This document shows, piece after piece, positions 3,718-36,198 of a stretch of 64,000 nucleotides of DNA. The DNA comes from a virus. A program made the position numbers and the translations under genes. The notes below the pieces were generated by a model. It searched no databases, was not told the DNA's origin, and worked only from the letters and a program-made list of their open reading frames with translations. Every line of letters begins with the position of its first letter. Positions within the stretch are counted from its first letter, which is position 1. Where the stretch lies: IMG/VR virus record IMGVR_UViG_3300042541_003180, positions 1 to 64,000 of that record. One strand, written 5' to 3'.

Positions 3718-3968
3718 ATACCTAAATCATTTAATTTTTGATCTCTAATTTCTGAAACAAATAAACTATTAAAGGTTCCTTTTTCAGACCATACACGATC
3801 ATTTCTTGTATGAATTTTATTTTCAGTTTTTATAACACTATAGTAAATTTTAACCCAAGGTTTTCTTTCACTACTATAATCATCTATAACATTAATTATA
3901 ATTCTGTGATTTTTCTCAAGTTTAGTTAAATAATCTTTTACAATTATTTCTTTATTTTTTTCTGTCAT
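3714..3968 (-). CDS. hypothetical protein with C-terminal tag
   Basis: ends IRDQKLNDLGI; overlaps the DHFR stop. Confidence 0.65.
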   Translation of the reverse strand: MTEKNKEIIVKDYLTKLEKNHRIIINVIDDYSSERKPWVKIYYSVIKTENKIHTRNDRVWSEKGTFNSLFVSEIRDQKLNDLGI

Positions 3969-4434
3969 ATGTTAAGTAAGTAAAGTCATACTTATGTCTT
4001 TCATCTGATGGATGATATTCTTCTGAAACTAATTCCCATTCTTCACCAATTTCTGGAAAGAAAGTATCTGCTTCAAAATCTGAATGTACTCTTGTTAGTT
4101 CAATTCTATCTGCAATTCCCATAGATTGTTTATAGATTTCTCCACCACCAATTATCCAAATATCTTGATTGTCTGTAAAATCAATTGCTGATTGAATTGC
4201 ATCAAATACAAAACAATTTTCAGGTACTGAATAGTTATCTTGTCGAGTTATAATAAGGTGTTTTCTATTAGGTAGAGGTTTAGGGAACGTTTCAAACGTC
4301 TTTCTACCCATAAGTATATAATTACCTGATGTAAGTTCTTTAAATCTTTTAAAATCGTCTGGTAAGTGCCAAACTAAGTCATTGTCTTTACCTAAAGAAT
4401 TGTTTTCTCCGGCTGCTGCTATAATTGTTATCAT
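3952..4434 (-). CDS. folA: dihydrofolate reductase
   Basis: IIAA..N..LG.DNDLVWHLPDDFKRFK, MGRKTFE, PLPNR, IIGGGEIY, ADTFFP. Confidence 0.97.
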   Translation of the reverse strand: MITIIAAAGENNSLGKDNDLVWHLPDDFKRFKELTSGNYILMGRKTFETFPKPLPNRKHLIITRQDNYSVPENCFVFDAIQSAIDFTDNQDIWIIGGGEIYKQSMGIADRIELTRVHSDFEADTFFPEIGEEWELVSEEYHPSDERHKYDFTYLTYDRKK

Positions 4435-4463: not shown

Positions 4464-5861
4464 TTAACTACATTCATAACAAGAAACTCTACCGTCTCCC
4501 CCGCATTCTTGACATTCAGTTGTTCCATCTCCATCACATCTTGTACATTCTTCAAGTCCGCGACCACTACAATCATCACACTCTACTTTACAATTACCAT
4601 CGCATTTAGGACATTCTACTTGACCATCTTCACAATTATCACAAGGTATTTTACCAGAACCTTCACAATTATCACAAGATGAACCTTCAAACTCACCACT
4701 TGCATCACACTGAGGACAATCTATTTTAGCATAACCATCACACTGATTACAATCTACTGTTCCATCTCCATCACATCTACCACAATCATACTCACCATAC
4801 CCATCACACTCAGAACATTCTTGTTCTCCATTACCATCACATTTCCAACATCTGTATTCAGCAGAACCACCACAGTCTTCACATTCCCTGCTACCTGTAC
4901 CACCACATTCTGAGCAAGAACCATCACCACCTTCAGTATCAGTTAGTTCATATTCATATGAATCTGACCAGTTGTTTGTTAGTAAACTAGAGTGAGGAGT
5001 GTAATACTTTATCGTATCCATATAAGGATATTTACTAAAATCTCCACCGTGGTCTAAAGTAATATAAATCCAACTATCTTCTCTAGTTAATTCTTGTCCG
5101 TTAAACATAATTGGATCACCTGTTTGATAAGTTTGATTTTTCTTATAATAGAACCCATTATCGATTGCAAAATCTATAAATAGTTGAGTATCTGCAGAAT
5201 CTTGTATATAGATTCTGTCCATAAATTGTCTATCTTTGTTATCTAACCAAAGAAGAGCTCTACCGGTAATTTTAGTATCATCTGTTTTAGATTTTAAGAT
5301 TATTAAAGAACATCTTTCAGGATTACTAGAGTATATTTCTAAGAAGTCTCTACATTTTGAGTATCTCATACAAGAAGATCCTAATGTTCCCATTTCTCTT
5401 TCGTATTGACTATGATTATACCAATGTTTAATATCATTACCTTTAACTATTTCGAATCTTGTAAAAGCTTCTTTCTCAACTAAAATCGCGGCTTTATATT
5501 TATTTACAAAGTCTTCTAATTCTTTATTATCAACTTCACGACCGGCTTTAGTTAGAATTGCTCTTACAAATCTACCGACATTCATATCAGATTTTTTTAA
5601 TGTGTAAGGATCATCAACTTTTTTAGCTTTATCGTCTGGAATAAAGAAAACCTTATCTTCTTTTTCTAAATCAAATGTTATATAGTTATAGTTTGTATCA
5701 ACGTCTATACCATTTAACATTCTTAGATTTCTAGAAACAGGTGTATTTATTCTTTTAAGTAGGTTATTAAACTTGTCATCAAAAACAATTTTAGCTTCTA
5801 ACAACATTTGTATATCTTTTTCTAAAAGATACTCTTCGTATTTTGATAATTTATTCTTCAT
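4464..5861 (-). CDS. uncharacterised phage protein (SCM / GRAxLW / MDRIY / PYMDT domain) with 14 C-terminal CxxCxGxG zinc-finger repeats; paralogue 1 of 3
   Basis: motifs shared with 14736..16166 and 16220..17614; DnaJ-type Cys repeats. Confidence 0.8.
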   Translation of the reverse strand: MKNKLSKYEEYLLEKDIQMLLEAKIVFDDKFNNLLKRINTPVSRNLRMLNGIDVDTNYNYITFDLEKEDKVFFIPDDKAKKVDDPYTLKKSDMNVGRFVRAILTKAGREVDNKELEDFVNKYKAAILVEKEAFTRFEIVKGNDIKHWYNHSQYEREMGTLGSSCMRYSKCRDFLEIYSSNPERCSLIILKSKTDDTKITGRALLWLDNKDRQFMDRIYIQDSADTQLFIDFAIDNGFYYKKNQTYQTGDPIMFNGQELTREDSWIYITLDHGGDFSKYPYMDTIKYYTPHSSLLTNNWSDSYEYELTDTEGGDGSCSECGGTGSRECEDCGGSAEYRCWKCDGNGEQECSECDGYGEYDCGRCDGDGTVDCNQCDGYAKIDCPQCDASGEFEGSSCDNCEGSGKIPCDNCEDGQVECPKCDGNCKVECDDCSGRGLEECTRCDGDGTTECQECGGDGRVSCYECS

Positions 5862-5895
5862 ATTACTATATATTATTTTTTTGTGCTGAAAAACT

Positions 5896-5904
5896 TAATA
5901 TATA
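5896..5904 (+). promoter_or_regulatory. putative late promoter TAATATATA (a back-to-back copy lies on the - strand at 5867..5875)
   Basis: divergent genes starting at 5861 and 5910 each have a copy 5 nt from the ATG. Confidence 0.55.
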
Positions 5905-5909
5905 CAAAT

Positions 5910-7511
5910 ATGAAATACTTAAAATTATTTGAAGAGATCGAACTTACTATAGGTGAGTTAGAAAAAGAAAGAGATGGTGAGGTACGTGGTAACAAGTTAG
6001 TTAAAAAACTAAAAGAAAGACCGGTAAAATTATCAATTAAAGGTAACGGTGAGAAAAATATAACTAAAGTAGAGGTAGATGGTAAAGAAGTTACACCTGC
6101 TGTTGCTGCTAAAGAAATTAGTACAAATGATAAGTATGATAAGGATAAGGGTAGAAAAGTATTTATTAAAAATAATAGATATGATGATGTTTTAATTTCT
6201 GGTAAAAAACACTTTAAACTTAATCAAGTAACAAAAACTCCGGAATTTGGTGCTGTTGGACCAGGTGTATTAACAAGACAATATGAAGCAATACAATGTT
6301 TATTTATAGCCTTTAAGTTAAGATATCCAGGTGAGATAGTAGATAAGGATAGAGTTATTGATTTTTGGGAAAAATATGTTAATAAAGATGATAAAGTTTT
6401 TAAAAGAATTGGTATTTATTTGGATCCTAAGTTTACTTTAACACGTGAAATGATAGATAGTTTATCAACTAATAGAGATTGGTTAAATACTTTCGTTAGA
6501 GTACCTGAACTTTTGATGAATTTTAAAGGTATTTTCCCTCGTGTTAATAATGCTAGAAAGTACTTAGTTTTCCTTGAGTCAAATAAGGATCCTATTTCAC
6601 CGGTTGTAAATATAGTCAAAAAGTATAATGAATTAAAGAAGATTGCTAAATCTTATGTTAATTTTTCTAAGTTTTGTCCAGCCGATGTTTATATTGTTAT
6701 TGAAAAATCTTTACCTACGATTAATAAAGAAATAAGTGCACAAACTTCTATTGAAGGTTTGGTTAAACTACTAGATCGTTATTTTGATAGTAATGAACTG
6801 ATACCGGTATCACTTAAAAAGCTTAATGAAGGTGATAGAGTTATTGTTAATAAAGAAAAAACAAAAAAACTACCAGATTTTACAATTGATAAATTTGTTA
6901 TAACTGATGATCCGTTAAAAGGAATTGCATCAAAACTAAAAGTTAAATCTGTTTGGATGTCAGAGACTCCTAATGGTGAAGAAGAGCCAGAACAACCATC
7001 GAGAGATATAATTTTTGACTCATCTGATACTGGTAAAGCTAGAAATATTGATGGTGATATTTTAGGAAGGTCTTCAAGACACGGTAAGATAGCATTAAAA
7101 TCAATTATTTCATTTTTTGAGAAGAATGGTTTTGTTGAACTATATGATTTAACACTTGATTTATATTCTAACCTAAGTACAAAGAGTGAAGATGAATTAA
7201 GAGAAATGATTTTATCTACACATAGTAATTTATTAGACTTAGTACCCGATATAACACAAGTACCAACAAGAACTAAAAGTGGTGGTGCTAATAAAATGTA
7301 TAGTGATTTGGTAGAAGGAAGTACGGTAAGTAATATTAAAAATAGATTAATATCCAAACTACAATCTCTTCAGTTATTAGTTGCGATTGCAACTATTCAA
7401 TCGGTAGAACCTACTGATGCAAATATAGCAATTACTGGTATTATGAGATATGCTCTTTCTATTCAAACAGAGCTTTTTAATGATACACCGAGATATTTAA
7501 GAATAATTTAA
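5910..7511 (+). CDS. N-tagged protein with a putative PD-(D/E)xK-like nuclease domain (start revised from 5883)
   Basis: begins MKYLKLFEE; E(QYEAIQ)...CPADVYI...PVSLKK arrangement resembles restriction-endonuclease-like folds. Confidence 0.5.
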   Translation: MKYLKLFEEIELTIGELEKERDGEVRGNKLVKKLKERPVKLSIKGNGEKNITKVEVDGKEVTPAVAAKEISTNDKYDKDKGRKVFIKNNRYDDVLISGKKHFKLNQVTKTPEFGAVGPGVLTRQYEAIQCLFIAFKLRYPGEIVDKDRVIDFWEKYVNKDDKVFKRIGIYLDPKFTLTREMIDSLSTNRDWLNTFVRVPELLMNFKGIFPRVNNARKYLVFLESNKDPISPVVNIVKKYNELKKIAKSYVNFSKFCPADVYIVIEKSLPTINKEISAQTSIEGLVKLLDRYFDSNELIPVSLKKLNEGDRVIVNKEKTKKLPDFTIDKFVITDDPLKGIASKLKVKSVWMSETPNGEEEPEQPSRDIIFDSSDTGKARNIDGDILGRSSRHGKIALKSIISFFEKNGFVELYDLTLDLYSNLSTKSEDELREMILSTHSNLLDLVPDITQVPTRTKSGGANKMYSDLVEGSTVSNIKNRLISKLQSLQLLVAIATIQSVEPTDANIAITGIMRYALSIQTELFNDTPRYLRII

Positions 7512-7801
7512 AAATATCTTTTGATATTACCCATTTTATCTATTATAAGATTCTTACCATCTCTTTTACGAACTAGAATATCTGTTCCTGAGAACCTAGC
7601 TTCTAATACACCTTGAGATAGTGTTCTTATTGGGTTACCCATTATATCTTTAGTTTCTAAACTTCCATTTACTTTAGTTATTAAAAAGATCTTTTGTGAT
7701 TCGTCGTATGTACCAAAGGCAACATTTTCAGATATTCTTCTTCCAAGATTACCAATTGAATCACATAAGTATAATGATTGATTAACTATTTTAAACATCA
7801 T
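7508..7801 (-). CDS. hypothetical small beta-rich repeat protein
   Basis: internal repeat D.MGN.(I/K)R occurs about three times. Confidence 0.6.
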   Translation of the reverse strand: MMFKIVNQSLYLCDSIGNLGRRISENVAFGTYDESQKIFLITKVNGSLETKDIMGNPIRTLSQGVLEARFSGTDILVRKRDGKNLIIDKMGNIKRYF

Positions 7802-7835
7802 AACTTTTATCTATTTTTATTATATATATAAATAT

Positions 7836-7982
7836 ATGGAAAGAGCAAATTTATATCTAATATTAGATGATGAAATTATAAAACGTTATAAAGAACATCT
7901 AGATGAGGTAGGTTATGATAAAAATAAACTATTTGAAAGAATAATTATTGATTTTTTAAAGAAAAATGATACTAAATCTTAA
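7836..7982 (+). CDS. small ribbon-helix-helix-like DNA-binding protein (48 aa, not in the ORF track)
   Basis: MERANLYLILDDEIIKRYKEHLDEVGYDKNKLFERIIIDFLKK: beta strand followed by two helices. Confidence 0.5.
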   Translation: MERANLYLILDDEIIKRYKEHLDEVGYDKNKLFERIIIDFLKKNDTKS

Positions 7983-8033
7983 AAAGTTCAATTTTTCATA
8001 TATTTTATTTATATATAGGATAACGAAAATTAT

Positions 8034-8243
8034 ATGAGGTACTTGAAAAGATTTAACGAAAATAAAGATGTATTCATGGAATACTTACTTGAGTTTACTG
8101 AGAACGGTAAGCCAGAAGAGCTATATAATACTAGATTAAGTAAATTACTTAGATTTGTAAGAATGGAAGGACTTAAAGATTACACAATATCAGGTCAAAC
8201 AAGTACTGGTGAATGGAAAATAATACTAAAAATAGGAAAATGA
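8034..8243 (+). CDS. small N-tagged hypothetical protein
   Basis: MRYLKRFNEN; TTTATATATAG upstream. Confidence 0.65.
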   Translation: MRYLKRFNENKDVFMEYLLEFTENGKPEELYNTRLSKLLRFVRMEGLKDYTISGQTSTGEWKIILKIGK

Positions 8244-8245
8244 AG

Positions 8246-8270
8246 AACCCACTCGAAAGTGGGTTTTTTT
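8246..8270. terminator. intrinsic terminator between convergent genes
   Basis: AACCCACT-cgaa-AGTGGGTT followed by a T run. Confidence 0.75.
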
Positions 8271-9237
8271 AATTCATATAATCTGTAAAAAATTGTTCAA
8301 AGATCGCTTGCATTACTGGAACACATATTGAGTTTCCTGCCAAAGCTACGTGTTGTTTAGTTGATAAACTTGTAGTTAATAGCTTATCAATGTCTGCATC
8401 TTTAACCCCCATAAAACGATAACCTTCTCTTGCAGTTAGAGTTCTAATAGTTTTATCATCTAACATAATTTGTGGTGATCCTGATGTAGTTAAACAAGGT
8501 GAACATCCGTCAATTGAGTAAATACGTCTAGCTTGGTCATACCTCAAATCACTTCTACGAGCAATCATCTTACATACTGAGTTTAATCTAGGTGTATTGA
8601 TTTCATAAGGTGGTGTAATAAATAAACTATTATCGGCAGTTGTATCAATAAATGGTTTCATCGAAACTCTAGTTTTTTTGTGTTTATGAACACCCATCAT
8701 TTTATTAGAAACATCTAAAGAAGATTCTCCTAATACTGAAAACATAAAAACTCTCTCACGATTTTGAGGACAACCAAAGTCAGCACCATTAAGTACCATC
8801 CAAGCTGAACCATAACCTAAAGAGTTAAGTTTATCGATGTAGTCGTTAAATTTTTTAATATGGTTTTTGGAAACTAGATTTTTAACATTTTCCATTAAAA
8901 GATATTTTGGTTTATTATGTTCTACGATTCTTTCAACTTCGTACAATAAACCACTTCGAGTTCCTTTTTCAATACCACGTTGTACACCAGATATAGATAT
9001 ATCTTGACAAGGGAATGAATAAGTTAAAAAATCACAATGAGGGAATGTTTTTTCATCAACTTTTGATACATCACCTAAATTACCTTGTTCGGTAGTGTGT
9101 AGTGAGTCGTAAGCTTCATTTGCTGATTTAAGAATGTCACAATTTGCGACGTTACGGTATTTAATACCACTATACTTTAGTGCTAGTTCTTGGGTACCAT
9201 ACCCTGAGAATAGACTTATAATTTTTAATTCTTCCAT
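8269..9237 (-). CDS. DNA (cytosine-5)-methyltransferase
   Basis: motif I LFSGYG, motif IV FPCQD, motif VI ENV, motif VIII QNRER, motif X AGNSI. Confidence 0.95.
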   Translation of the reverse strand: MEELKIISLFSGYGTQELALKYSGIKYRNVANCDILKSANEAYDSLHTTEQGNLGDVSKVDEKTFPHCDFLTYSFPCQDISISGVQRGIEKGTRSGLLYEVERIVEHNKPKYLLMENVKNLVSKNHIKKFNDYIDKLNSLGYGSAWMVLNGADFGCPQNRERVFMFSVLGESSLDVSNKMMGVHKHKKTRVSMKPFIDTTADNSLFITPPYEINTPRLNSVCKMIARRSDLRYDQARRIYSIDGCSPCLTTSGSPQIMLDDKTIRTLTAREGYRFMGVKDADIDKLLTTSLSTKQHVALAGNSICVPVMQAIFEQFFTDYMN

Positions 9238-9243
9238 ATGTGA

Positions 9244-9270
9244 ATTATATGAAAGAATTAAAAAATGTTT
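9244..9270 (-). promoter_or_regulatory. putative middle-class promoter AAAC-N17-TATAAT
   Basis: same spacing recurs before several DNA-metabolism genes. Confidence 0.45.
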
Positions 9271-9742
9271 AGTCTAAATGTCTAATATCTTTGTGTGAAG
9301 ATTTAGATTGATTCGAGTGTGACCATAATCTTGCAAATGGTGTAGTAAAGTAATCATTATAACATAAAGTATCATCAATATGAAGATTGATGTTATTTTC
9401 TTTACAATACTCTGCTTTGGTAGAATCCCATAAAACATCATCAAATTTTTTCTGAATAGTTCCATCTGGAAATTCTATTTCACCTAAGGTTTCTGCTGTT
9501 TTTAATAAGTGATCATAAACTGAGAATTTATGAGTATAGTTGATACCACTTAGTTGTTTTTCTAATTTTTCTGTCCATTCACCACCGGTTATAATGTGAA
9601 CTTCGCCATTATTTTTTATAACAGAGTCTGCTAAAAATACAAAGAACTCTGGAAGAGCATCGATTACTCCGTGTATATCGATACCTATTTTGAATTTTGC
9701 TGTTGAACTTTCGTTCACTATACTACTAAATTTTGTTATCAT
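9269..9742 (-). CDS. HAD-superfamily phosphatase/nucleotidase-like protein
   Basis: IGIDIHGVI (DxH variant of DxD), IITG, K..., HIDD; N-terminal MITKFSSIVNES. Confidence 0.65.
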   Translation of the reverse strand: MITKFSSIVNESSTAKFKIGIDIHGVIDALPEFFVFLADSVIKNNGEVHIITGGEWTEKLEKQLSGINYTHKFSVYDHLLKTAETLGEIEFPDGTIQKKFDDVLWDSTKAEYCKENNINLHIDDTLCYNDYFTTPFARLWSHSNQSKSSHKDIRHLD

Positions 9743-9752
9743 AATTTATATA

Positions 9753-10148
9753 TTAAATTATCTCTTCAATTTTCTTATCTCTTAATTCTGCTGTAGATAA
9801 AATTTCTTGTACAAAGATATGAAAATATTTTGTATTATTAATTAAATCTAATGTAATATTTGTATGTGAACCCATACCATTTGTGTTTGATGATAATATT
9901 GGTTGAATATGTCTATCAGTGCCCCAATATTTGGAACCAGGTGGTGAATAATATTCTCCATTTGGATTAGATGTACTTTCCCAATGTTCTATTATAAATG
10001 ATTTGCTTTCTGTTTGTTCAGGATCACATTCATATAGAATCGTATATTGTCCATTATCATAGTTTACATTTAAAAGTTTACTATAAGCAGGAACTACAAA
10101 TGTAGCTTGATTATAGCTAATATATTGTGATTGTGTTCTTATTATCAT
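9753..10148 (-). CDS. hypothetical protein with C-terminal tag
   Basis: ends LRDKKIEEII. Confidence 0.7.
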   Translation of the reverse strand: MIIRTQSQYISYNQATFVVPAYSKLLNVNYDNGQYTILYECDPEQTESKSFIIEHWESTSNPNGEYYSPPGSKYWGTDRHIQPILSSNTNGMGSHTNITLDLINNTKYFHIFVQEILSTAELRDKKIEEII

Positions 10149-10510
10149 ATTCCTAATTTAGTTAGTATTTTATCTCTATAGAAACTTATATCATCAACTA
10201 TAAAAAGGTTTGAATCCGTAATAATTAGATTATCAATAATCTCAATAATTTTTGATGTTGTTCTTAATGACATAGTTCCTACATTTTTATTACTTGTAAC
10301 GATTTGATTAATTTCTAATAAATCAACCTCTGCATTTTCTGTATTAACAATACCTTTACATTTTTGTATAGAATATTTATCTACAAATTCTTTATTATCT
10401 AGTATTTTTTTATAGTATTTATTTTCCATATCTACCATAACATAAGAAACCTCGGTAGATTTCCCACCGAGGTGATTATGAATTAAATCTCCTACTTTAA
10501 CTAATTTCAT
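10145..10510 (-). CDS. hypothetical protein with C-terminal tag
   Basis: ends YRDKILTKLGI. Confidence 0.7.
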   Translation of the reverse strand: MKLVKVGDLIHNHLGGKSTEVSYVMVDMENKYYKKILDNKEFVDKYSIQKCKGIVNTENAEVDLLEINQIVTSNKNVGTMSLRTTSKIIEIIDNLIITDSNLFIVDDISFYRDKILTKLGI

Positions 10511-11349
10511 TACAATATTGAAAGTCCTGGTTTAGAACTAATTATTGATAAATTTACATTACCATCCACATCGTAAAAACCTGGCATAATCATCGCTGTA
10601 GACTCAACACCCATCATTTTAACAGGTTTTAAGTTAGTAACAAACAAAACCGTTTTACCGGTTAACATATCTACGTAGTTCTCACCTAATGTAGGTTTAA
10701 TGTTTGTAACAACGGTTCTTAGTGTATCTTCTCCGAAATCAACTTCTAACTTAATAAGTTTATCTGATTTAGGTACGTCTGTTACACTTGTAATTGTACC
10801 TGGTTTAATTTCTAATTTAGATGAAATATCTAAAAACTCACTGAATTCAATTTTATCTTTCATGTTTAATATATTTATTGCTTTAATTTTACATTCTTCT
10901 TTTAGTCCTGGTATTCCTAATTTCCAGGGTTTTACTGGTTCTCCTGTTGAACAATTTACAAAATAATCTTGTTGCTCATCTAAGAAGTCTTGTATATCAT
11001 CTAAGATAACATATTGATTTACTTCTGGATGTCTATCTAACCAAAGTTTAATTTCGTGACCTCTTTTTACTTGGTCATAATAAATTATATCGGTTGCTTC
11101 ACATACATCTACACAATCTGGTGTTACATCAATAATTTCACCTGGTAGATTACGTTCTTTCCAAAGTGCCAACATTCGTTCTATTCCTTTATCTTTCCAA
11201 GTTGAAGAGATAACGATTTTTGCTCCTGTTTTTTCGATAACTTCCTTTAAATTCTGTACATATTCATCCCTGAAGATATGACCAAATTGGTCTCTATCTG
11301 CATAATCTACGTTTAAAACTCCATCAATGTCCAGAAATATCGTTTTCAT
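10510..11349 (-). CDS. HAD phosphatase (Swiss-army-knife RNA-repair type) fused to a Trbp111/CsaA-like tRNA-binding OB domain
   Basis: IFLDIDGVLN, VISSTW, RGHEI..WL, YVILDD; then DKLIKLEVDFG..RTVV, NLKPVKMMGVES.AMI. Confidence 0.8.
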   Translation of the reverse strand: MKTIFLDIDGVLNVDYADRDQFGHIFRDEYVQNLKEVIEKTGAKIVISSTWKDKGIERMLALWKERNLPGEIIDVTPDCVDVCEATDIIYYDQVKRGHEIKLWLDRHPEVNQYVILDDIQDFLDEQQDYFVNCSTGEPVKPWKLGIPGLKEECKIKAINILNMKDKIEFSEFLDISSKLEIKPGTITSVTDVPKSDKLIKLEVDFGEDTLRTVVTNIKPTLGENYVDMLTGKTVLFVTNLKPVKMMGVESTAMIMPGFYDVDGNVNLSIISSKPGLSIL

Positions 11350-11354
11350 AATGG

Positions 11355-11362
11355 CAAATATA
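11355..11362 (-). promoter_or_regulatory. TAnnTTTG element (TATATTTG)
   Basis: 5 nt upstream of ATG 11349, heading an operon with two C-tagged ORFs. Confidence 0.55.
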
Positions 11363-11366
11363 CAAC

Positions 11367-11609
11367 TTAATTTTGATTTATTAAAAGAATTTTTTGATTT
11401 CTTGTTAGTTGTTTAATTCTCCATTCTTCTTTTGCTGCCAAAGATTTTGTTTCAAAAGATTGTTGATAAACTAATTTTACTGGAGTTCTAGTCTTGGTGT
11501 ACTTTGCTCCTTTCTTCTTATTATGCGTATCAATTCTCTTTTCTACGTCATTACTGATGCCGGTATAAAGGGTCAAATCACTACACTCTAAAATATAAAC
11601 ATACCACAT
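11367..11609 (-). CDS. small GIY-YIG nuclease (YhbQ/UPF0213-like)
   Basis: WYVYILEC.D.TLYTGI..D..KR...HN..KGAKYT..R.P. Confidence 0.9.
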   Translation of the reverse strand: MWYVYILECSDLTLYTGISNDVEKRIDTHNKKKGAKYTKTRTPVKLVYQQSFETKSLAAKEEWRIKQLTRNQKILLINQN

Positions 11610-11696
11610 TATCTATATATTCACTTTCATGCAACATCATGATATATAACTAATAAATATATATATTTTCGGATTTAAAATTTAATATATACTCTT

Positions 11697-12212
11697 ATGA
11701 AATACATAAAATTATTTGAAGGTATAGTTCCTGCACATCAAAGTGGTTCAGATTATAGAACTAGAAACACTGATGAAACAGTAGATGTTACTACATTAGA
11801 CAAAATGTCATTAAGATCACCAGTATATCAAAAAGGTGAAATAATTATCTGGTCAGATAATGTAAAGAATAAAGATGTTGACTATGACTTTGCAGAGAAA
11901 TTACTAAGAAGAGTAGGTCTTAAATTGATAGGTGAACCTTATGATGGTGGATTTTTAGTAAAATGTGAACCAGGTAAAGAAGTAGAAAGTGCTAAAATGG
12001 CAATTTCTAGATTTCCTGAATTCTTTGATAGTTACGAAAGAGAGGATATAAGAATGCCTTTTATATCAAATAAAGTAGAAGAAATAAAGGATAAAGTTGA
12101 AGATATAGAAAGATTTTTTGAGAGTTCTATAAAAAGAAATGTAAATGTAACTAAATATAATAAGTATATTGATGATATTATTAAAGACCTTGATAATCTA
12201 AAAATAAAATAA
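11697..12212 (+). CDS. N-tagged hypothetical protein
   Basis: MKYIKLFEG; TAATATATA at 11683..11691. Confidence 0.7.
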   Translation: MKYIKLFEGIVPAHQSGSDYRTRNTDETVDVTTLDKMSLRSPVYQKGEIIIWSDNVKNKDVDYDFAEKLLRRVGLKLIGEPYDGGFLVKCEPGKEVESAKMAISRFPEFFDSYEREDIRMPFISNKVEEIKDKVEDIERFFESSIKRNVNVTKYNKYIDDIIKDLDNLKIK

Positions 12213-12237
12213 AAAAGTCCTTTTTCAAGGACTTTTT
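12211..12237. terminator. bidirectional intrinsic terminator
   Basis: AAAAAGTCCTT-tttc-AAGGACTTTTT. Confidence 0.7.
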
Positions 12238-12251
12238 ATTTAGAAGTTGTG

Positions 12252-12590
12252 TTACTCACTAACCACAACTTCACGAATTTTTGTAAATTCACCATTACTT
12301 ACCGCTTTGGAGATCCACCTGTTTAAATCTGAACCTTTCATTTCTGACTCGAATGTAGTTGTGCCTAAGTCAGAAGATAATTGTAATGTTTCGATTGTTG
12401 GTTCATCGTCATATACACCTTCATTTTCAGGATTGAGATAAACAACTGATGTTTCGACTGTTGCAATAGGAAATTGATAAACACCGTCAGCTAACTCTAC
12501 TGTATAGTAAAGGTTACCACTAACATAGTGACTTAATTTTGCCATTGCTTTAGATTTATACAAATCTTTTTTAATTTCGTTTAATTCCAT
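12252..12590 (-). CDS. hypothetical protein
   Basis: ORF downstream of the tRNA with phage-like composition. Confidence 0.65.
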   Translation of the reverse strand: MELNEIKKDLYKSKAMAKLSHYVSGNLYYTVELADGVYQFPIATVETSVVYLNPENEGVYDDEPTIETLQLSSDLGTTTFESEMKGSDLNRWISKAVSNGEFTKIREVVVSE

Positions 12591-12611
12591 TGTTATTTTG
12601 TATTTTTAATG

Positions 12612-12685
12612 TGGTCCCAGAGGGATTTGAACCCCCGGCCTCAAAATTATGAGTTTTTTGCTCTAACCAGCTGAGCTATGGGACC
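12612..12685 (-). tRNA. tRNA with CAT anticodon, most likely tRNA-Ile2 (lysidine type); CCA not encoded
   Basis: GGTCCCA-TAGCTCAGCTGGTTAGAGC-A-AAAAA-CTCATAA-TTTTG-AGGCC-GGGGGTTCAAATCCCTC-TGGGACC-A; C4:G69 and C5:G68 pairs are typical of Ile2. Confidence 0.9.
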
Positions 12686-12702
12686 GTTATATATTTGAAT
12701 AT

Positions 12703-12729
12703 ATTATACTTATTTTTCTTTATTTGTTT
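12703..12729 (-). promoter_or_regulatory. putative middle-class promoter AAAC-N17-TATAAT for the tRNA
   Basis: 17 nt upstream of the tRNA 5' end. Confidence 0.45.
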
Positions 12730-12830
12730 TATTTCGTTAGACTTAATTATAACTAATTTTTCACCATTTGTTTTACAAAAGTACAAAAAATAATTGAAAG
12801 AAAAAATAAAATAAATAGAAAAAATTATAC

Positions 12831-12838
12831 TATCTTTG
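12831..12838 (+). promoter_or_regulatory. TAnnTTTG element (TATCTTTG)
   Basis: 4 nt before ATG 12843. Confidence 0.55.
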
Positions 12839-12842
12839 TGAA

Positions 12843-13208
12843 ATGGAAATTATACAACGACATGGCATTGCCTTTAAAGTAATAGAAAGAAAGATGAATT
12901 TCCCTTTCATCACTGATTGTGATGATATGTTATGTGAAGATGTGAGTTCATTTTATTCAGATCCAAACACACAATCTATTGTTTTAATTAGAGATAACTA
13001 TTCTAAACCTATTATGACTTATCAAGATATTCTTGACGAGATAGAGTATCTATATGATAATAGTATTCGTTGGAGAAGTGAGCAAACAAGAGATAGTTTA
13101 AGAACTTACTATCATAAGATCTCTAATATAATGAAAACTTATAAAAGACAAGAACAAATAAATAAAGTATTAAATAGTAACGAATGTACATTATATCTAG
13201 CATGTTAA
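12843..13208 (+). CDS. hypothetical protein with near-C-terminal tag
   Basis: KRQEQINKVL near the C-terminus. Confidence 0.65.
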   Translation: MEIIQRHGIAFKVIERKMNFPFITDCDDMLCEDVSSFYSDPNTQSIVLIRDNYSKPIMTYQDILDEIEYLYDNSIRWRSEQTRDSLRTYYHKISNIMKTYKRQEQINKVLNSNECTLYLAC

Positions 13209-13708
13209 AAAACAAATTATACTTATTTGATAAGTGGTTATCTAAAGATAGAAATACATTATTAATTCTATTATTTGTTGCTACCTCAACTATTATGATA
13301 CAATTTAAACCTTTTACCTTCTATGGTATTGGTTTACTTTCACTTATATGTTTCTATATAGTTTTTGTAAAAGCAAAGATTTTGGGTGGTCAGTGGAAAT
13401 TAGATAAATCAGTATATCATGTGCCACAAAAAGATGAAATTATAGTGACAACTAAAGACTTTTATTGGGATGGTTCATTAAAAAGTTATCATGTTCAAAG
13501 TCATACAAGTAAACCTAATACAGTTTTCATTGAGAAAGGTACAGAATTAAAAATTATACATCTAAAAGAAACCGATGATGATTGGTCTTTGATGTTAAAG
13601 AAAGGCAATGGTGAGATAATCATTACAGTAAATTATTTAGAGTCGAAAGATTACTATAAAACAAAGTCTCAAATAAGAGAAGATAAATTAAAGAAATTAT
13701 TAAAATAA
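13184..13708 (+). CDS. membrane protein (2 TM) with C-terminal tag
   Basis: two N-terminal hydrophobic segments; ends IREDKLKKLLK. Confidence 0.7.
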   Translation: MYIISSMLKNKLYLFDKWLSKDRNTLLILLFVATSTIMIQFKPFTFYGIGLLSLICFYIVFVKAKILGGQWKLDKSVYHVPQKDEIIVTTKDFYWDGSLKSYHVQSHTSKPNTVFIEKGTELKIIHLKETDDDWSLMLKKGNGEIIITVNYLESKDYYKTKSQIREDKLKKLLK

Positions 13709-13714
13709 AATAAT

Positions 13715-14425
13715 ATGGTAAAATTACTACCCGCAACATTTAGATGGGTTCCTAAAGTAGATGATATAATTAAAATAGCAGGAATACATCCAAGTCGTGT
13801 ATTTAATGTTTATATTTTTGGTTCACAAGTATATGGTACTTATGATGCAAATTCTGACTGGGATATTATAATGGTAGCAAATAACTCGGTTGAAGCAGTT
13901 GAGTTAAATAAAACAGTTAAAGATGAATATTCATATAATTTACAAACTCGTAATATAAGATATAACATTCATGTTTATACACCAGATAGATTTCAAAAAG
14001 ATTTAGAGTGGCATCGTATGAATAACCTTGAATGTATCTTTGCACCAGAGTGGGCTATCTTAAAAGAAGATAAAAAATTTGATTTTCAGATAAACTTACC
14101 TAAGTTAAGACACGCAACTTCACACGTTAGTTCTAACTCATGGATAAAGTGTAAGAAAAAATTATTGATTGAAGGTGAGTATCGTACTGCGATAAAATCA
14201 TTCTTTCATTCAATTAGAATACCTATGTTTGCATCACAAATTGCACGAAGTGGTAAAATTACTGACTTTACTGCGGCTAATTTTATTTGGAATAGATTAA
14301 TATTTCAAGCATTACCTGCTTATCAAAGAAAGGATTCTAAATGGGATTGGAATTCTTTGAATCTAGAATTCAAAATAACATATAATCTTATGTTAAGTTT
14401 GTTCAGAAAAGTAACTACAAAATAA
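13715..14425 (+). CDS. Pol-beta-superfamily nucleotidyltransferase
   Basis: FGSQVYGT....SDWDII motif. Confidence 0.8.
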   Translation: MVKLLPATFRWVPKVDDIIKIAGIHPSRVFNVYIFGSQVYGTYDANSDWDIIMVANNSVEAVELNKTVKDEYSYNLQTRNIRYNIHVYTPDRFQKDLEWHRMNNLECIFAPEWAILKEDKKFDFQINLPKLRHATSHVSSNSWIKCKKKLLIEGEYRTAIKSFFHSIRIPMFASQIARSGKITDFTAANFIWNRLIFQALPAYQRKDSKWDWNSLNLEFKITYNLMLSLFRKVTTK

Positions 14426-14661
14426 TGGATGAAGAATTAGAGAAATTATATCAAGAGTTAATTAACAATCGAATAAATTATAGAGGTCAAGGTTTGGTAC
14501 AAGTTAGCCCACCACACCCACATCAAAATTTGATTGCTAATCCATTAATAGCTAATTATGATTTTACTTCTTTATATCCTTCTATTCAGAAGAGTTATTA
14601 TAAGATCAAACAAATTATTAGAAAAAGAAAAATACAAAGAATGTTTCAAAACCCATCTTAA
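14425..14661 (+). CDS. small protein carrying a family-B DNA polymerase motif-A peptide and a C-terminal tag
   Basis: YDFTSLYPSI, then IRKRKIQRMF. Confidence 0.55.
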   Translation: MDEELEKLYQELINNRINYRGQGLVQVSPPHPHQNLIANPLIANYDFTSLYPSIQKSYYKIKQIIRKRKIQRMFQNPS

Positions 14662-14675
14662 TAGATGGGTTTTTT
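14648..14675 (+). terminator. intrinsic terminator
   Basis: AAAACCCATCT-taat-AGATGGGTTTT. Confidence 0.75.
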
Positions 14676-14735
14676 ATTAAAGTTTGATTTTTGAGAATGA
14701 AATAATAATATATACTAAAAAATTATATTATAATA

Positions 14736-16166
14736 ATGTTAAAAAAATATATTGATTTTATAACAGAATCACATGATTTAATAACAGAATCTCAGTTGAT
14801 TGAAATGCTTTTAGAATCTGATGTTATGTTTTCTGATAACTTTAAGAAAGTATTAGGTAAAATAGACAATCCAGTTGCGAAAAAGATTTTAGGTTTAGAG
14901 AAAAAAGATTTACCAGTAGTGGCTAACTACTTTGATATAGATCCAAAAAGAAATGACTATGTTTATTTCACTCCAGATAGAAAAGCTCAAGAAATTTTAA
15001 ATGATCCAAAAGAATTATATCGTTTTGTAGGAAATAATGGTGGTTGGTTAACACATGGTGAAGCAAATAATGCAATTTTTGGTATATTAGGATATGTTCC
15101 ACAAGGTGATGTTTATAGACCTGATTCAACAGAAGTAGGAGAAGTTGTTGAAAAGATAGTTTCTGAAAAGTCTGGTAAAACTTGGATTTGGTTAAAATTT
15201 GCAAATGGACAAGGAGTTTTTAACTTAGAAAAATTGAGACCAGTAGATGATAGAAGTAAGTTAGTTTGGTCAAAAAATCGTCAAGATGTTAGAGTTGGTA
15301 GATCAATGAATGCTCTTTTGACTTTAGCTGCTAAAGATGATGATACTGCTAAGTTTAATGCGAGAGATATTGAAATATTTGTTAATTTATATAAAGCTCA
15401 AATAGATAAATTTAATGATAAGTTCTCTTTCTTTGAAGAAGTTAAGGGTAGAAGAATATATGATAAGTATCAATATGATAATTACTATGATGCGAGTGGA
15501 TCATTAGCTAACTCTTGTATGGCAGAAGCTGATTCGAGTTGGTTAGAACCATATACAGATAATATTGATACTGTTTCATTAGTTATTTTTAAAGCTACAG
15601 AAGATGAAGATATGATTATTGGTCGTGCTATTCTTTGGGAAACTTTAGATGGTAAAAAGGTAATGGATAGAATCTACACAAATAATGATTCTGATGTTGA
15701 ATTGTTTAGACAATATGCACAAGAAAATGGTTGGTGGTATAAATCAAACAATAATAGTGCTGCAAGAATCGAAGGTATTGGACCAGAAGGTCAAGATCAA
15801 AATCTATCTATTGACGTTCAATTGAAAAAAGATCATGAGAATTTCCCTTATATGGATACTCTGAAGTATTATTATCCAGCAACTGGAATTATAACAAATT
15901 CTAGAAAACCTAAAGGTTTCTTTTATTATTTAGAAGATACTGGTGGAGAATGGAGTCATTCAGATTGTAAAACTTGTGATGATAGTGAAGTTATGAAATG
16001 TCCTACTTGTAATGGAGATGGAGAAGAAGTTTGTATTGAATGTAATGGTGACGGAGAAATTGATGGTCAACAATGTTCAACTTGTGGTGGAGAAGGTAAG
16101 AAAACTTGTTCAAAATGTGATGGTGATGAGGAAGTAGCTTGTACAGACTGTGAAGAATATAGATAA
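14736..16166 (+). CDS. SCM / GRAxLW / MDRIY / PYMDT-domain protein with 6 CxxC repeats; paralogue 2
   Basis: MLKKYIDFITES...; GSLANSCM, GRAILW, MDRIY, FPYMDT; TAATATATA at 14706..14714. Confidence 0.8.
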   Translation: MLKKYIDFITESHDLITESQLIEMLLESDVMFSDNFKKVLGKIDNPVAKKILGLEKKDLPVVANYFDIDPKRNDYVYFTPDRKAQEILNDPKELYRFVGNNGGWLTHGEANNAIFGILGYVPQGDVYRPDSTEVGEVVEKIVSEKSGKTWIWLKFANGQGVFNLEKLRPVDDRSKLVWSKNRQDVRVGRSMNALLTLAAKDDDTAKFNARDIEIFVNLYKAQIDKFNDKFSFFEEVKGRRIYDKYQYDNYYDASGSLANSCMAEADSSWLEPYTDNIDTVSLVIFKATEDEDMIIGRAILWETLDGKKVMDRIYTNNDSDVELFRQYAQENGWWYKSNNNSAARIEGIGPEGQDQNLSIDVQLKKDHENFPYMDTLKYYYPATGIITNSRKPKGFFYYLEDTGGEWSHSDCKTCDDSEVMKCPTCNGDGEEVCIECNGDGEIDGQQCSTCGGEGKKTCSKCDGDEEVACTDCEEYR

Positions 16167-16194
16167 AAAAAATCCCTCGATTGAGGGATTTTTT
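16165..16194 (+). terminator. intrinsic terminator
   Basis: AAAAATCCCTC-gatt-GAGGGATTTTT. Confidence 0.75.
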
Positions 16195-16219
16195 CATGAT
16201 ACAATTTAATATATAGATA

Positions 16220-17614
16220 ATGATTACAAACTACTACGATTATATAACAGAAAGTAAATTACAATTACTCTTAGAAGCTAAAATAGTATTTACTACTAAT
16301 TTTATGGAGGTCTTAGATAAAATAGAATCTCCTATAGCAAAAAAACTTATTTCACTTAGAGGTGAAGATAAAGATATTGATAGAAACTTTATTGATATTA
16401 ATAAAGAAAAGATAGATAGTGTTTTCTTTAAACCACAAGATAAAATAGATAAAGTAAAATATAAGATTTTAAATAAAGGATCTGTTTATGATAATTTATC
16501 TAAGGCTGCAAAAGGAATCATAAACAGGTTTGCTGAACCTAGAAATGGTGAACAAGGTATAATTACAAGAACAATGACTGTTGATGAATTAAATGAAATA
16601 TCACCTAGTGGTGTTTGGAGATATATGTATGATAATAGTGATGTTATGGTTGTTTTTCAATTTGGTTCAGGAAAGGATATTTTTGATGTACTTACACCTA
16701 AAAGTAATTTAACACCAGACTATGCTTCGATAAGAAGTACTGATGTAAATGTTGGTAGATTTGTTAGAGCGTTTTTGACAAAACTAGGTGAGAAGTTTAC
16801 AGATATAGAAATTGAAAGTTTTGTTGATCAATATAAGAAAGTAATGCAGATGAAAACAGATATATTTTCAAGATTTAAAGAAGTTAAAGGTGAAGATATA
16901 AAACATTGTTATTTAGTGGATAATTATGAATCAGAATCCGGTTCTTTAGGTGGTTCTTGTATGCGTCACAGTAGATGTCAAGATTATTTTGATATTTATG
17001 TTAATAATCCTGATAAGGTATCGTTGGTTATTTTATTAAGTGAACAAGATTCTTCAAAAATCGCAGGAAGAGCCATTCTTTGGCTAGATGATAATGATAG
17101 ACGAATTATGGATAGAATCTATATAATTAGAACTGCTGATATACTTTTATTTACAGAGTATTGTGATTCGAAAGGTTATCTTCATAAAGAAAGTCAAACT
17201 TATAGTTCAACCACACCACTTGTTGAAAATGGTATTGAATTGGATGAACATGATTCAAAAGTAGTTATTACTTTAAAGAAAGGTGAGTATAGTCCTTATC
17301 CTTATATGGACACGATGAAATATTATAGTCCAGAAACTGGAGTAATATCTAATCGTTATATTAGAACTGCAAATGGTTGTGTTGAACTAACTGATACTGA
17401 TGGTGGTCCTCATGAAGGATGTGATATATGTGATGGTAGCGGTCGAGTTGATTGTCCAGAGTGTGAGGGTAGAGAAGAAATAGATTGTACTAATTGTGAT
17501 GGATCGGGTGGAGATGCTAGTGGTGAAGCTTGTAGTGTGTGTCAAGGTGGTGGCATGGTTCGTTGTGATATATGTGATGGTAACGGTCGAGTTGATTGTC
17601 CAGAATGTAGTTAA
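16220..17614 (+). CDS. SCM / GRAxLW / MDRIY / PYMDT-domain protein with 6 CxxC repeats; paralogue 3
   Basis: MITNYYDYITES; GSLGGSCMR, GRAILW, MDRIY, YPYMDT; TAATATATA at 16207..16215. Confidence 0.8.
   Translation: MITNYYDYITESKLQLLLEAKIVFTTNFMEVLDKIESPIAKKLISLRGEDKDIDRNFIDINKEKIDSVFFKPQDKIDKVKYKILNKGSVYDNLSKAAKGIINRFAEPRNGEQGIITRTMTVDELNEISPSGVWRYMYDNSDVMVVFQFGSGKDIFDVLTPKSNLTPDYASIRSTDVNVGRFVRAFLTKLGEKFTDIEIESFVDQYKKVMQMKTDIFSRFKEVKGEDIKHCYLVDNYESESGSLGGSCMRHSRCQDYFDIYVNNPDKVSLVILLSEQDSSKIAGRAILWLDDNDRRIMDRIYIIRTADILLFTEYCDSKGYLHKESQTYSSTTPLVENGIELDEHDSKVVITLKKGEYSPYPYMDTMKYYSPETGVISNRYIRTANGCVELTDTDGGPHEGCDICDGSGRVDCPECEGREEIDCTNCDGSGGDASGEACSVCQGGGMVRCDICDGNGRVDCPECS
17420..17608 (+). 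repeat. 45-bp direct repeat (17420..17464 and 17564..17608, 2 mismatches) in the zinc-finger region
   Basis: tgtgatatatgtgatggta(g/a)cggtcgagttgattgtccaga(g/a)tgt. Confidence 0.85.
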
Positions 17615-17646: not shown

Positions 17647-18387
17647 TTATTTCTTTAAGATTTCTTTTGTATAGTAATCATCAAATCCATCAAGATAAGT
17701 AGAAATTGGTTTTGTTTTATCAGTAATAATAATTTCATCAATAAATCCAAAATCTAACGCTTCTTGTGAGTTTAACCATTTGTCTCTTCTTGCACTTTCA
17801 AGTACATAATCAAAATCTCTACCACTATTCTCTGCAAGCATCTTGAATAAGATATAGTTATATTTTTCTGATTCCATTTGGGAGATACGATTATCTTCAA
17901 CGTGTCCTGATGCACCAGAAGAAACTTGGTGAATCATTACTTTGGAAAAGTTCAAAGAAGAACGTTTTCCTTTAGTTCCTGATGATAAAAGAATAGAACC
18001 CATAGAAGCAGCCATACCAGTATTGATTGTGGCTACGTCAGAGTTGATATATCTCATTACGTCAACCATACCTAATCCAGCTAAAACTGAACCACCCGGT
18101 GAATCAACGTGCATTGTAATATCTTTTGTCTCAACTGAGTCTAAATACATTAATTGAGCTTGAACTACAGTTGACATTTGTGTATTTACTACACCGGCAA
18201 CCCATAATATACGGTCCCGCATAAGTCTACTAAAAATGTCCATCTGCGTTACTCTCATTTCTCTTTCTTCAAGAATGTAAGGTGTCATACTATTTTCTAG
18301 TAATCCTTTCTCGAAGTAATGTAGGTTCATAGAAGAAATACCTTCACTTAAAGCGTATTTTTTAAAATCTTTTCCAAAATCTGTCAT
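17647..18387 (-). CDS. clpP: ATP-dependent Clp protease proteolytic subunit
   Basis: TPYILEER..MDIFSRLM.DRI, DSPGG, GMAASMG (catalytic Ser), MIHQ (His), RDKWL (Asp). Confidence 0.95.
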   Translation of the reverse strand: MTDFGKDFKKYALSEGISSMNLHYFEKGLLENSMTPYILEEREMRVTQMDIFSRLMRDRILWVAGVVNTQMSTVVQAQLMYLDSVETKDITMHVDSPGGSVLAGLGMVDVMRYINSDVATINTGMAASMGSILLSSGTKGKRSSLNFSKVMIHQVSSGASGHVEDNRISQMESEKYNYILFKMLAENSGRDFDYVLESARRDKWLNSQEALDFGFIDEIIITDKTKPISTYLDGFDDYYTKEILKK

Positions 18388-18506: not shown

Positions 18507-19106
18507 ATGAAAAACGCTTTTAAGTTATTTGACTTTATGGGAACTCCAGTTTATTTAAAATACTGGTTCTTTATTTTACTTCCTTTATTTATGTTACAAA
18601 ATGATTTTAGTACCTCTATTGATTGGTTCTTATCTATTTTTGTTGCAGTCTTAGTACACGAATTGGCACATACCGCAGTTGCTAAGAAATTTAACCATTA
18701 TGTAGAACATGTTTATTTAGATGTATTTAATGGTGCCGCTGCGATTGATACTACTTATTCTCCTTATAATCAAACAATCTTAATTGTTGCTGCAGGTCCA
18801 CTATCTAATTTAGTATTGTGGTTTATTGGTTCTTATTTAGGATTGGATATATTTTCACAAGTGAATATGTTTTTATTTATATTTAATATTTTACCTATTT
18901 ATCCAATGGATGGTGGTAGAATTTGTAAAGCAATTTGTCAATGGATGACTAAACCTTCGATTGGAAGAAAAATCAATGGATATATTTCAATAGTTGCAAG
19001 TGGATTACTTTTCATTTTGTCAATTATGACTAGTAATATACTTATAGCCATATTTGCTGCCTTTTTTATCTTTCTTTCATATAAAGAAATAGAACAAAAA
19101 TATTAA
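18507..19106 (+). CDS. site-2 protease (peptidase M50, SpoIVFB-like) membrane metalloprotease
   Basis: HELAH, AGPLSN, FNILPIYPMDGGR, multiple TM segments. Confidence 0.92.
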   Translation: MKNAFKLFDFMGTPVYLKYWFFILLPLFMLQNDFSTSIDWFLSIFVAVLVHELAHTAVAKKFNHYVEHVYLDVFNGAAAIDTTYSPYNQTILIVAAGPLSNLVLWFIGSYLGLDIFSQVNMFLFIFNILPIYPMDGGRICKAICQWMTKPSIGRKINGYISIVASGLLFILSIMTSNILIAIFAAFFIFLSYKEIEQKY

Positions 19107-23282: not shown

Positions 23283-23792
23283 ATGAAATTAAAAGTTTAT
23301 ATTTCCGGATATGGTGCTGAAGTTACTCAGGGAACTCTAACAAATGAAAAGGTTGAACAAATTTATGAAAGTTACGACTCATTAGAAGAGTATTTTACTC
23401 AGTATATTGATGATGATTTTAGTTGGTATGAAATTGATGATAATTTTCATTGCTATGGTGCTTATTTAGCAGAATCACTTATTCAAGTTATAGATGGTGA
23501 TGGTAATACTATTTATGAAAATCCTTGTGATGAGTTAGTTACTACTGAATTGTTAACAAATGAAATTTATTCCGATGAAGAAAATTCTGCAATTACTTGT
23601 GTATCTATCGAAAAAGGAACATTCTTTGAGGGGGATTTTGAAGTAGATAATTTTGATCCCGAACTACTTACTTTAGAAATTAAAGTATTAGAAGGTTTTA
23701 GAATTATTTATAAAGTATTATATAATAATGATGAAATTGATGGTGATTTTGTATTCTCTACCGGAAAAGACTTTAATGTTTATATTGATTAA
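23283..23792 (+). CDS. acidic hypothetical protein
   Basis: ORF preceded by AAC-N17-TATAAT (23253..23278). Confidence 0.7.
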   Translation: MKLKVYISGYGAEVTQGTLTNEKVEQIYESYDSLEEYFTQYIDDDFSWYEIDDNFHCYGAYLAESLIQVIDGDGNTIYENPCDELVTTELLTNEIYSDEENSAITCVSIEKGTFFEGDFEVDNFDPELLTLEIKVLEGFRIIYKVLYNNDEIDGDFVFSTGKDFNVYID

Positions 23793-30188: not shown

Positions 30189-30473
30189 ATGCCAACTATT
30201 ACTAAGAAAAAAACACAATCTAAAGTACAGGAGATTTTATCTAAACCTTACAAACTAATACTTCATAATGATGATTATAACTCATTTGATTGGGTTATTG
30301 AATGTCTTATGAAAGTATGTAAGCATGAATATGAACAAGCAACACAATGTGCTCATATTGTTCACAATAATGGTAAGTGTGATGTTAAGTATGGTGACTT
30401 AGAAACCATTTCAGAAATGAAGAATTTACTAAAATCGGCGGGACTCTCAGTCACTATGGAAGTGAATGAATAA
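30189..30473 (+). CDS. clpS: ATP-dependent Clp protease adaptor ClpS
   Basis: LILHNDDYNSFDWVI..L, EQA.QCA.IVH..GKC.VK.G. Confidence 0.92.
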   Translation: MPTITKKKTQSKVQEILSKPYKLILHNDDYNSFDWVIECLMKVCKHEYEQATQCAHIVHNNGKCDVKYGDLETISEMKNLLKSAGLSVTMEVNE

Positions 30474-36170: not shown

Positions 36171-36198
36171 AAAAAACCGAGATAGTTCTCGGTTTTTT
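36171..36198 (-). terminator. intrinsic terminator
   Basis: AAAAAACCGAGA-tagt-TCTCGGTTTTTT. Confidence 0.75.

Follow-up and report, generated by a model that had tools for sequence, protein, structure and literature searches.

The DnaJ-type zinc fingers that have been solved hold one or two zinc sites. Three paralogous genes (P0001, P0002 and P0003) in a 64,000-nucleotide stretch of viral DNA, positions 1 to 64,000 of IMG/VR record IMGVR_UViG_3300042541_003180 (the window), end in arrays of the same CxxCxGxG motif, with 14 motifs in the first protein and 6 in each of the other two. The locus raises the questions of how such arrays are folded, what they are attached to, and what they may do. 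A first-pass annotation, made from the letters of the window, had read them as acidic fold-back rods on a conserved, uncharacterised domain, and the 14, 6 and 6 motifs were reproduced here from the translations and a motif listing. With all the evidence taken together, we consider it likely that each paralogue is a multi-domain phage protein that ends in a fold-back zinc-ladder hairpin and has a core with a GNAT-like fold.

Successive motifs lie about 11 residues apart, with one longer linker in the middle of each array (14, 14 and 15 residues), and these features were found again at the coordinates first assigned to them. Spacings in P0001 are 11 (six times), 14, 11, 10 and 11 (four times), and its long linker, GEFEGSS, separates motifs 7 and 8. 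Those in P0002 are 11, 11, 14, 11 and 11 around the central linker GEIDGQQ, and those in P0003 are 11, 11, 15, 11 and 11 around GGDASGEA. A stop codon follows 1 to 4 residues past the end of the array in all three proteins. The repeat consensus, built from 1051 repeats of the family, is C-x-[ED]-C-D-G-x-G-x-V-[ED], with G6 present in 96% and G8 in 88%. The rods are acidic, as had been claimed, with a mean net charge of about -2.1 per repeat; the tail of P0001 holds 38 Asp or Glu versus 11 Lys or Arg in 150 residues. Several repeats of P0001 are degenerate, with Gly changed to Ala in repeats 2, 6 and 7; repeat 9 lacks GxG, and repeat 10 has one additional Cys. Recent DNA slippage was considered as the source of the repeats and rejected: the 33-bp periodicity is weak (3.6 copies, 73% matches), and the repeats are no more alike when adjacent or mirrored.

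Two arrangements of the motifs can be envisaged. In a nested arrangement, motif i would pair with motif N+1-i around one zinc ion along one long beta-hairpin, the two central motifs would form a tip like that of anti-TRAP, and the chain would return to its base beside the core. Such pairing implies 7, 3 and 3 rungs in P0001, P0002 and P0003, and the hairpins are probably pinned by 7, 3 and 3 zinc ions. In a sequential arrangement, each pair of neighbouring motifs (1 with 2, 3 with 4) would hold its own zinc, and the array would be a flexible chain of small knuckles. Motifs were counted naively in 269 family sequences, 221 with arrays and 48 without. Even numbers (4, 6, 8, 10, 12, 14 or 16) were found in 204 of the 221; in the odd-count arrays that were inspected, either one motif is degenerate or a CxxCxxC overlaps. 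Even counts alone would fit sequential pairing too, and anti-TRAP shows that two neighbouring motifs can share one zinc. The place of the irregular gap is a different matter. The largest departure from 11 stands at the exact centre in 68 of 73 distinct spacing patterns, and the centre of a 6-, 10- or 14-motif array falls inside a would-be neighbour pair, so that the long linker splits this pair and sequential pairing does not fit. Even counts and a central linker, both anticipated by the first-pass annotation, are thus the rule among homologues.

Insertions, deletions and the placing of the module in other proteins point the same way. Off-centre indels of at least 2 residues form 10 mirrored pairs of equal size versus 6 unequal ones, and 0 of 5000 shuffles reach 10. 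Control registers fail, with 0 of 22 and 0 of 21 when shifted by one and 4 of 19 when parallel. Examples of mirrored patterns are 11 13 11 11 18 11 11 13 11 and 11 11 11 11 9 14 9 11 11 11 11. These patterns are probably in part co-inherited, and independent events are fewer, perhaps five or six. One cluster at 90% identity contains orthologues with 10, 6 or 4 motifs whose remaining sequence is 85-95% identical, in line with the variable rod length first proposed. The first two and last two motifs are kept in this cluster, while the central block, including the tip, varies; loss of the central block only, with the base motifs kept, is what the shortening of a hairpin requires and is hard to reconcile with a chain of knuckles. 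A search with the rod only found symmetric 6- and 8-motif arrays in short unrelated proteins, either N-terminal or between two other domains (metagenomic proteins P0272-P0277). The zinc-ladder module thus appears to be mobile between protein families, and where an array is inserted between other domains both of its ends must lie side by side, which again argues against sequential pairing.

Structure prediction gave a compatible picture. The AlphaFold2 model of P0001 has short strands at residues 335, 346, 357, 368 and 379 and at residues 404, 414, 425, 436 and 447. They are placed symmetrically (i+j about 784), the profile of the predicted local distance difference test (pLDDT) is symmetric about residue ~392, and the modelled rod is consistent with nested pairing. 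In the comparison with BSD2 (6ekb, 62 residues), 59 residues align within residues 323..461 of the model, taking in both arms at the base (Z 5.3). The family profile matches DnaJ 1exk at 2.7e-6 and BSD2 at 4e-5, and the tip of P0001 aligns with residues 9-35 of anti-TRAP (2bx9) at an expectation value (E) of 1.2e-3, with the same 14-residue spacing. A symmetric model and a BSD2 domain that aligns across both arms would not be expected of beads on a string, and we regard sequential pairing as very improbable. Fold-back pairing, as first annotated, is strongly supported by the central turn, the mirrored indels, the central deletions, the symmetry of the model and the BSD2 match across the arms, with zinc assigned by homology.

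The solved relatives of the rods that we found have two or four motifs each. BSD2 (PF25436; 6ekb, 9ci1) and DnaJ (PF00684; 1exk) carry the same CxxCxGxG motif as the phage rods, and BSD2 has the 11-residue step between motifs 1-2 and 3-4. Both form one hairpin with nested pairs 1+4 and 2+3, the pairing predicted for the phage rods. The solved domains have four motifs, two zinc ions and a long excursion between motifs 2 and 3, whereas the arrays of the phage family have 4-16 motifs (2-8 predicted rungs) and a short tip, are strongly negatively charged, come without a J-domain and are attached to an unrelated enzyme-like core. None of the three paralogues reaches the Pfam gathering score: P0001 reaches 22.8 bits against a curated DnaJ/BSD2-type zinc-finger profile with a cut-off of 27, and P0002 and P0003 gave no match to the profiles PF00684 and PF25436. 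BSD2_CRD is matched by 44 of 59 relatives at E up to 1 (best 1.1e-8). The claim that a J-domain is missing holds, since PF00226 is unmatched at E up to 1 and the HPD tripeptide is absent in all three paralogues. Anti-TRAP (RtpA; 2bx9; PF15777, NF058604) has a C-x2-C-x10-C-x2-C unit similar to each rod tip, but is itself built of one zinc site and a trimerising helix, unlike the phage rods; its profile gives 15.6 bits against a family cut-off of 65, and the PDB alignment covers the 27-residue tip only. Our literature searches for long CxxCxGxG arrays in phages gave only two-motif DnaJ inserts in HMO-2011-type polymerases. Judged by its sequence, the rod is an extended form of the DnaJ/BSD2 zinc finger, joined to an unnamed enzyme-like family. 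The sequence-based evidence suggests that repetition of the DnaJ-type unit can yield one continuous hairpin with as many as eight zinc rungs. If this is true, nature would have in it a simple module for building rigid protein rods of defined length, one whose number of rungs shifts between near-identical proteins and which can be inserted elsewhere.

The three paralogues are 35-46% identical in pairwise comparison. Their predicted domain order (Table 1) runs from an N-terminal peptide through a small alpha/beta domain, an SH3-like barrel in two of the three, and a helical linker to the GNAT-like core and the zinc ladder. Residues 20-310 of P0001 are modelled with a pLDDT of ~90. The barrel of P0003, also present in P0002, has a pLDDT above 90 and resembles SH3, KOW and NdhS domains (Z ~5).

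Table 1. Features of the three paralogues and of other genes in the window (ORF, open reading frame; tagged, with the N-terminal tag common to 14 ORFs).
Feature	Position	Strand	Remarks
P0001, paralogue 1	4464..5861	-	465 aa; predicted 14-motif zinc hairpin; without SH3-like insert
P0001 14 x CxxCxGxG array, residues 316-465	4464..4916	-	predicted 7 zinc rungs; strongly acidic
P0001 hairpin tip, motifs 7 and 8, 14 residues apart	4665..4718	-	anti-TRAP 2bx9 alignment
P0001 core domain, residues ~130-306	4944..5474	-	GNAT-like fold suggested by structure searches; conservation
P0001 N-terminal peptide, residues 1-19	5805..5861	-	low-confidence model; family-conserved
P0002, paralogue 2	14736..16166	+	476 aa; insert domain and predicted 6-motif hairpin
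P0002 linker and core domain	15273..15950	+	
P0002 6 x CxxC array, from residue 411	15966..16166	+	predicted 3 zinc rungs; tip weakly matches anti-TRAP model
P0003, paralogue 3	16220..17614	+	464 aa; tandem with P0002
P0003 N-terminal peptide, residues 1-19	16220..16276	+	pLDDT <50; Y-x-D-Y-I-T-E-S, like T4 IPII/IPIII start
P0003 SH3-like beta-barrel insert, residues 79-168	16454..16723	+	no counterpart in P0001
P0003 linker and core domain	16727..17404	+	
P0003 6 x CxxC array, from residue 401	17420..17614	+	predicted 3 zinc rungs
Tagged ORF	5910		
Tagged ORF	11697		
Tagged ORF	23789-24463		
Tagged ORF	28050-28616		
Tagged ORF	33353-33928		
Tagged ORF	34807-35226		
Tagged ORF	36197-36772		
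Tagged ORF	36775-37272		
Tagged ORF	37992		
Tagged ORF	40703		
Tagged ORF	48921-49679		
Tagged ORF	49936-50520		
Tagged ORF	50525-51622		
Tagged ORF	51638-52216		
DHFR	3952-4434		directly downstream of P0001
C5 cytosine methyltransferase	8269-9237		
ClpP	17647-18387		proteolysis gene
M50 protease	18507-19106		proteolysis gene
NusA	21015-22247		full-length (NusA_N and KH domains); phage-encoded
ClpS-like	30189-30473		proteolysis gene; label from the first-pass annotation

The domain to which the rods are attached is strongly conserved. The motifs SCM, GRAxLW, MDRIY and PYMDT, listed earlier as its hallmarks, are present in all three paralogues, and the core falls within no family of Pfam, PHROG or NCBIfam, so that its description as conserved and uncharacterised stands; PHROGs and NCBIfam gave nothing informative. 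The invariant residues of P0001 are S163-C164-M165, R201, W205, D215-R216-x-Y218 and P279-Y280-x-D282. Measured over 149 diverse representatives, the columns conserved at 98-100% are S163-C164-M165, Y148, Y177, R201, W205, D215-R216-x-Y218 and P279-x-x-D282, with S, C, M, Y, R, D-R-x-Y and P-x-x-D at 99-100%. The top Foldseek matches of the P0001 core are all GNAT acetyltransferases (E ~1e-2, probability up to 0.96). VIA, applied to residues 130-306, likewise returned GNATs only (Z 6.4-4.6, 87-130 residues aligned; Z 6.4 with 109-126 residues aligned at a root-mean-square deviation of 3.4-3.8), and this region has the strand and helix order of the GNAT fold. The models and the invariant residues suggest an enzyme-like domain with a weak likeness to GNATs. 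The invariant S-C-M, R, D-R-x-Y and P-Y-x-D residues could make up a site for catalysis or ligand binding in the cleft typical of GNATs, without a coenzyme A (CoA) loop, and the invariant Cys may be catalytic. A PcfJ-like identity (PF14284) was a lead from the ESM Atlas (0.83) and from ranks 41 and 49 in BFVD, and was dropped as no hidden Markov model (HMM) match was found at E up to 10; the literature on PcfJ was searched as well and gave nothing of use. A search for fused domains in long relatives gave only a sub-threshold phosphoribosyltransferase, in one protein; a phosphoribosyltransferase is also encoded three genes away from a Cellulophaga phage homologue, and this link was judged too weak to build on.

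The host of the three rod genes is a very large bacteriophage. The source is an 85-kb IMG/VR virus record with a CheckV completeness of 15%, which points to a phage genome of about half a megabase, and the G+C content of the window is ~28%. Genes in the window encode a T4-type large terminase, a tail-sheath-like protein, topoisomerase IV subunit A and a full NusA, together with a C5 DNA methyltransferase, DHFR, ClpP and an M50 protease. Among complete genomes, the 'uncultured phage' assemblies LR745206 and LR756501-4, of 635-735 kb, are the closest. The core defines a very large unnamed phage family: a word-based search gave 767 relatives, an exhaustive profile search of the core gave 4852 clusters at 50% identity, and BFVD holds many uncharacterised phage relatives. 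The core was unmatched in a plasmid collection. The 735-kb phage LR756501 has 16 copies of the core, partly clustered in tandem, and LR756502 has 7; most of these copies are rod-less. The tandem clusters of LR756501.1 lie at 62-66 kb, 434-440 kb and 527-540 kb (L007, L009, L011, L013, L015, L016, L020-L026). A 651-aa member in LR756502.1 (L014, 135238-138870) has a 314-residue tail with 21 irregularly spaced CxxC motifs, a Cys-rich extension that is not a ladder. Cellulophaga phages phi38:1, phi40:1 and Calle have one copy each; in the phi38:1 homologue an acidic tail without Cys takes the place of the rod, and the phi38:1 and Calle_1 homologues sit among replication and metabolism genes. The largest known phages carry as many as 16 copies of the core in one genome. 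The core family is among the larger unnamed phage families, and its activity, once found, would explain a sizeable share of the 'dark matter' of huge phages.

Identity between orthologues is 53% at the rod positions other than Cys and Gly, 81% in the core and 87% in the N-terminal domain. From these comparisons the rod evolves fast and readily changes its length, while its Cys/Gly frame and negative charge appear to be kept.

The N-terminus bears on whether the proteins are packaged. Fourteen otherwise unrelated ORFs in the window begin M-[KR]-x-[LI]-K-x-[FY]-E-x-F. This start resembles that of T4 IPI, IPII and IPIII, M-K-T-[YF]-x-E-F, and may be a head-loading tag. The first-pass annotation had assigned the tag to all three paralogues as well, an assignment that has to be withdrawn: on a position matrix made from the 14 ORFs, which themselves score 11.7-18.5, the paralogues score 1.5, -9.6 and -10.6, no better than background. 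What the paralogues share is a family-wide peptide, Y-x-[DE]-[FY]-I-T-E-S, in which Y8 and S15 are at least 90% conserved and E14 is invariant among 59 aligned relatives. Residues 1-19 have a pLDDT below 50, and the peptide lies outside the folded domain in the models of P0001 and P0003. T4 IPII and IPIII begin M-K-T-Y-Q-E-F-I-A-E, as read from the T4 record, and resemble the family peptide. The targeting peptide of T4 directs proteins to the prohead and is cut after Glu by the gp21 protease. By this likeness the paralogues could be head-loaded proteins that are cleaved behind I-T-E, a suggestion that we make tentatively and hold to be somewhat short of an even chance. The likeness has its limits: the other tagged proteins of the window use another variant, and the annotation of a 72-kb podovirus does not count its homologue among the structural proteins. 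Against the family of T4 gp21-type prohead proteases (S77), LR756501 and LR756502 score below threshold, at 22-24 bits with a cut-off of 27 (L108, LR756501.1 73997-74341, and L109, LR756502.1 225326-225685, in ORFs of 811 and 699 aa); this family had no match in the 85-kb record.

A number of observations limit or weigh against the overall interpretation. As for the rod, its pLDDT in the P0001 model is 47-85, and zinc binding is ascribed to it by homology. Mutual information between mirrored repeats, computed on 22-32 non-redundant sequences, placed mirrored pairs at 4 of the top 15 in the 14-motif class and 2 of 15 in the 10-motif class. The rod-less sequences (48 of 269) indicate that the rod is not essential to the function of the core. 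As for the core, the structural similarity to GNATs is middling, with Z under 8, and HMMs for GNAT, FemAB-type and L/F-transferase families (PF00583, PF13480, PF03588) are unmatched in the record at E up to 10. The Q/R-x-x-G-x-G/A loop that binds the CoA pyrophosphate after beta4 in GNATs is missing: P0001 reads I-Q-D-S-A-D-T-Q after M-D-R-I-Y, and these columns are not conserved in the 149 representatives. The invariant set, including the Cys, also differs from that of GNATs. The paralogues do not fit the common tag of the window. Packaging is called into question by the phi38:1 homologue, which is located in the replication and metabolism arm and not among the genes annotated as structural.

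What the rod does is less certain than how it is folded. As only the frame, the implied rigidity and the negative charge are kept, a generic physical role is favoured. The rod would then be a modular appendage, a stiff polyanionic arm or spacer carried by an enzyme, and not a sequence-specific binding surface; we give this our preference among the possible roles, with considerable doubt. The most interesting alternative is that the rod imitates DNA or RNA and occupies nucleic-acid-binding proteins of the host, restriction or other defence enzymes for example, its length being tuned to the target. Such mimicry would agree with the net charge of about -2 per repeat, with the conserved acidic positions 5 and 11, and with the acidic tail that the phi38:1 homologue has instead of a rod. 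Anti-TRAP, which among solved structures is closest to the tip, blocks the surface with which TRAP binds RNA. The fast evolution, the length shifts in close orthologues and the many paralogues in a genome have the look of an arms race. However, no known anti-restriction family turned up in the searches made, in which PADLOC was not included, the rod would be thinner than duplex DNA, many family members are without any tail, and no binding partner is known. We consider a decoy role unlikely. Slightly less likely still is a combined scenario, in which the zinc ladder would be a length-programmable, DNA-like polyanionic rod on packaged enzymes, attached by huge phages and used as a decoy for DNA- or RNA-binding defence proteins of the host, or as a slender leader by which the enzyme could pass through the tail with the genome; on either reading, rungs would be gained and lost so rapidly because phage and host are engaged in an arms race.

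The relation to the Cys-rich domains of DnaJ and BSD2 also suggests a chaperone-like or assembly arm, a hairpin that holds unfolded or partly assembled clients for the attached domain or for a nearby ClpP. The most frequent neighbour of the family is a ClpP homologue: of 78 related loci, 21 have one no more than 3.5 kb from a family member, arranged in two different ways and with ClpP identity down to 37% (37-43%). Genes for ClpS and an M50 protease are likewise present in the record. Yet these loci come from related huge phages, so that the linkage may be mere inherited gene order, and we treat the ClpP neighbourhood as a lead. Unlike a client-binding site, the surface of the rod is very acidic and little conserved; as there is no J-domain either, we think a chaperone-like role improbable. 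With 28 liganding Cys in 150 residues, the array of P0001 could also be pictured as a metal store that sequesters zinc or iron, or as a redox module that passes on electrons or thiol-disulfide equivalents; the cysteine-rich domain of DnaJ has been reported to act as a thiol-disulfide oxidoreductase. But the array has the marks of a structural zinc finger, namely strict 11-residue spacing, GxG turns, mirrored indels and a defined tip, and metallothioneins are without such regularity; of all the roles weighed, this is the one to which we give least credence. The generic rigid arm thus remains the role that we favour for the rod.

A functional link to DHFR was considered and not adopted. The gene lies beside orthologues of P0001 in eight closely related contigs only, and since the pairing is conserved among close orthologues alone (8 loci), it is read as shared gene order. 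The C5 cytosine methyltransferase gene also lies near P0001, next to an unannotated ORF of 542 aa.

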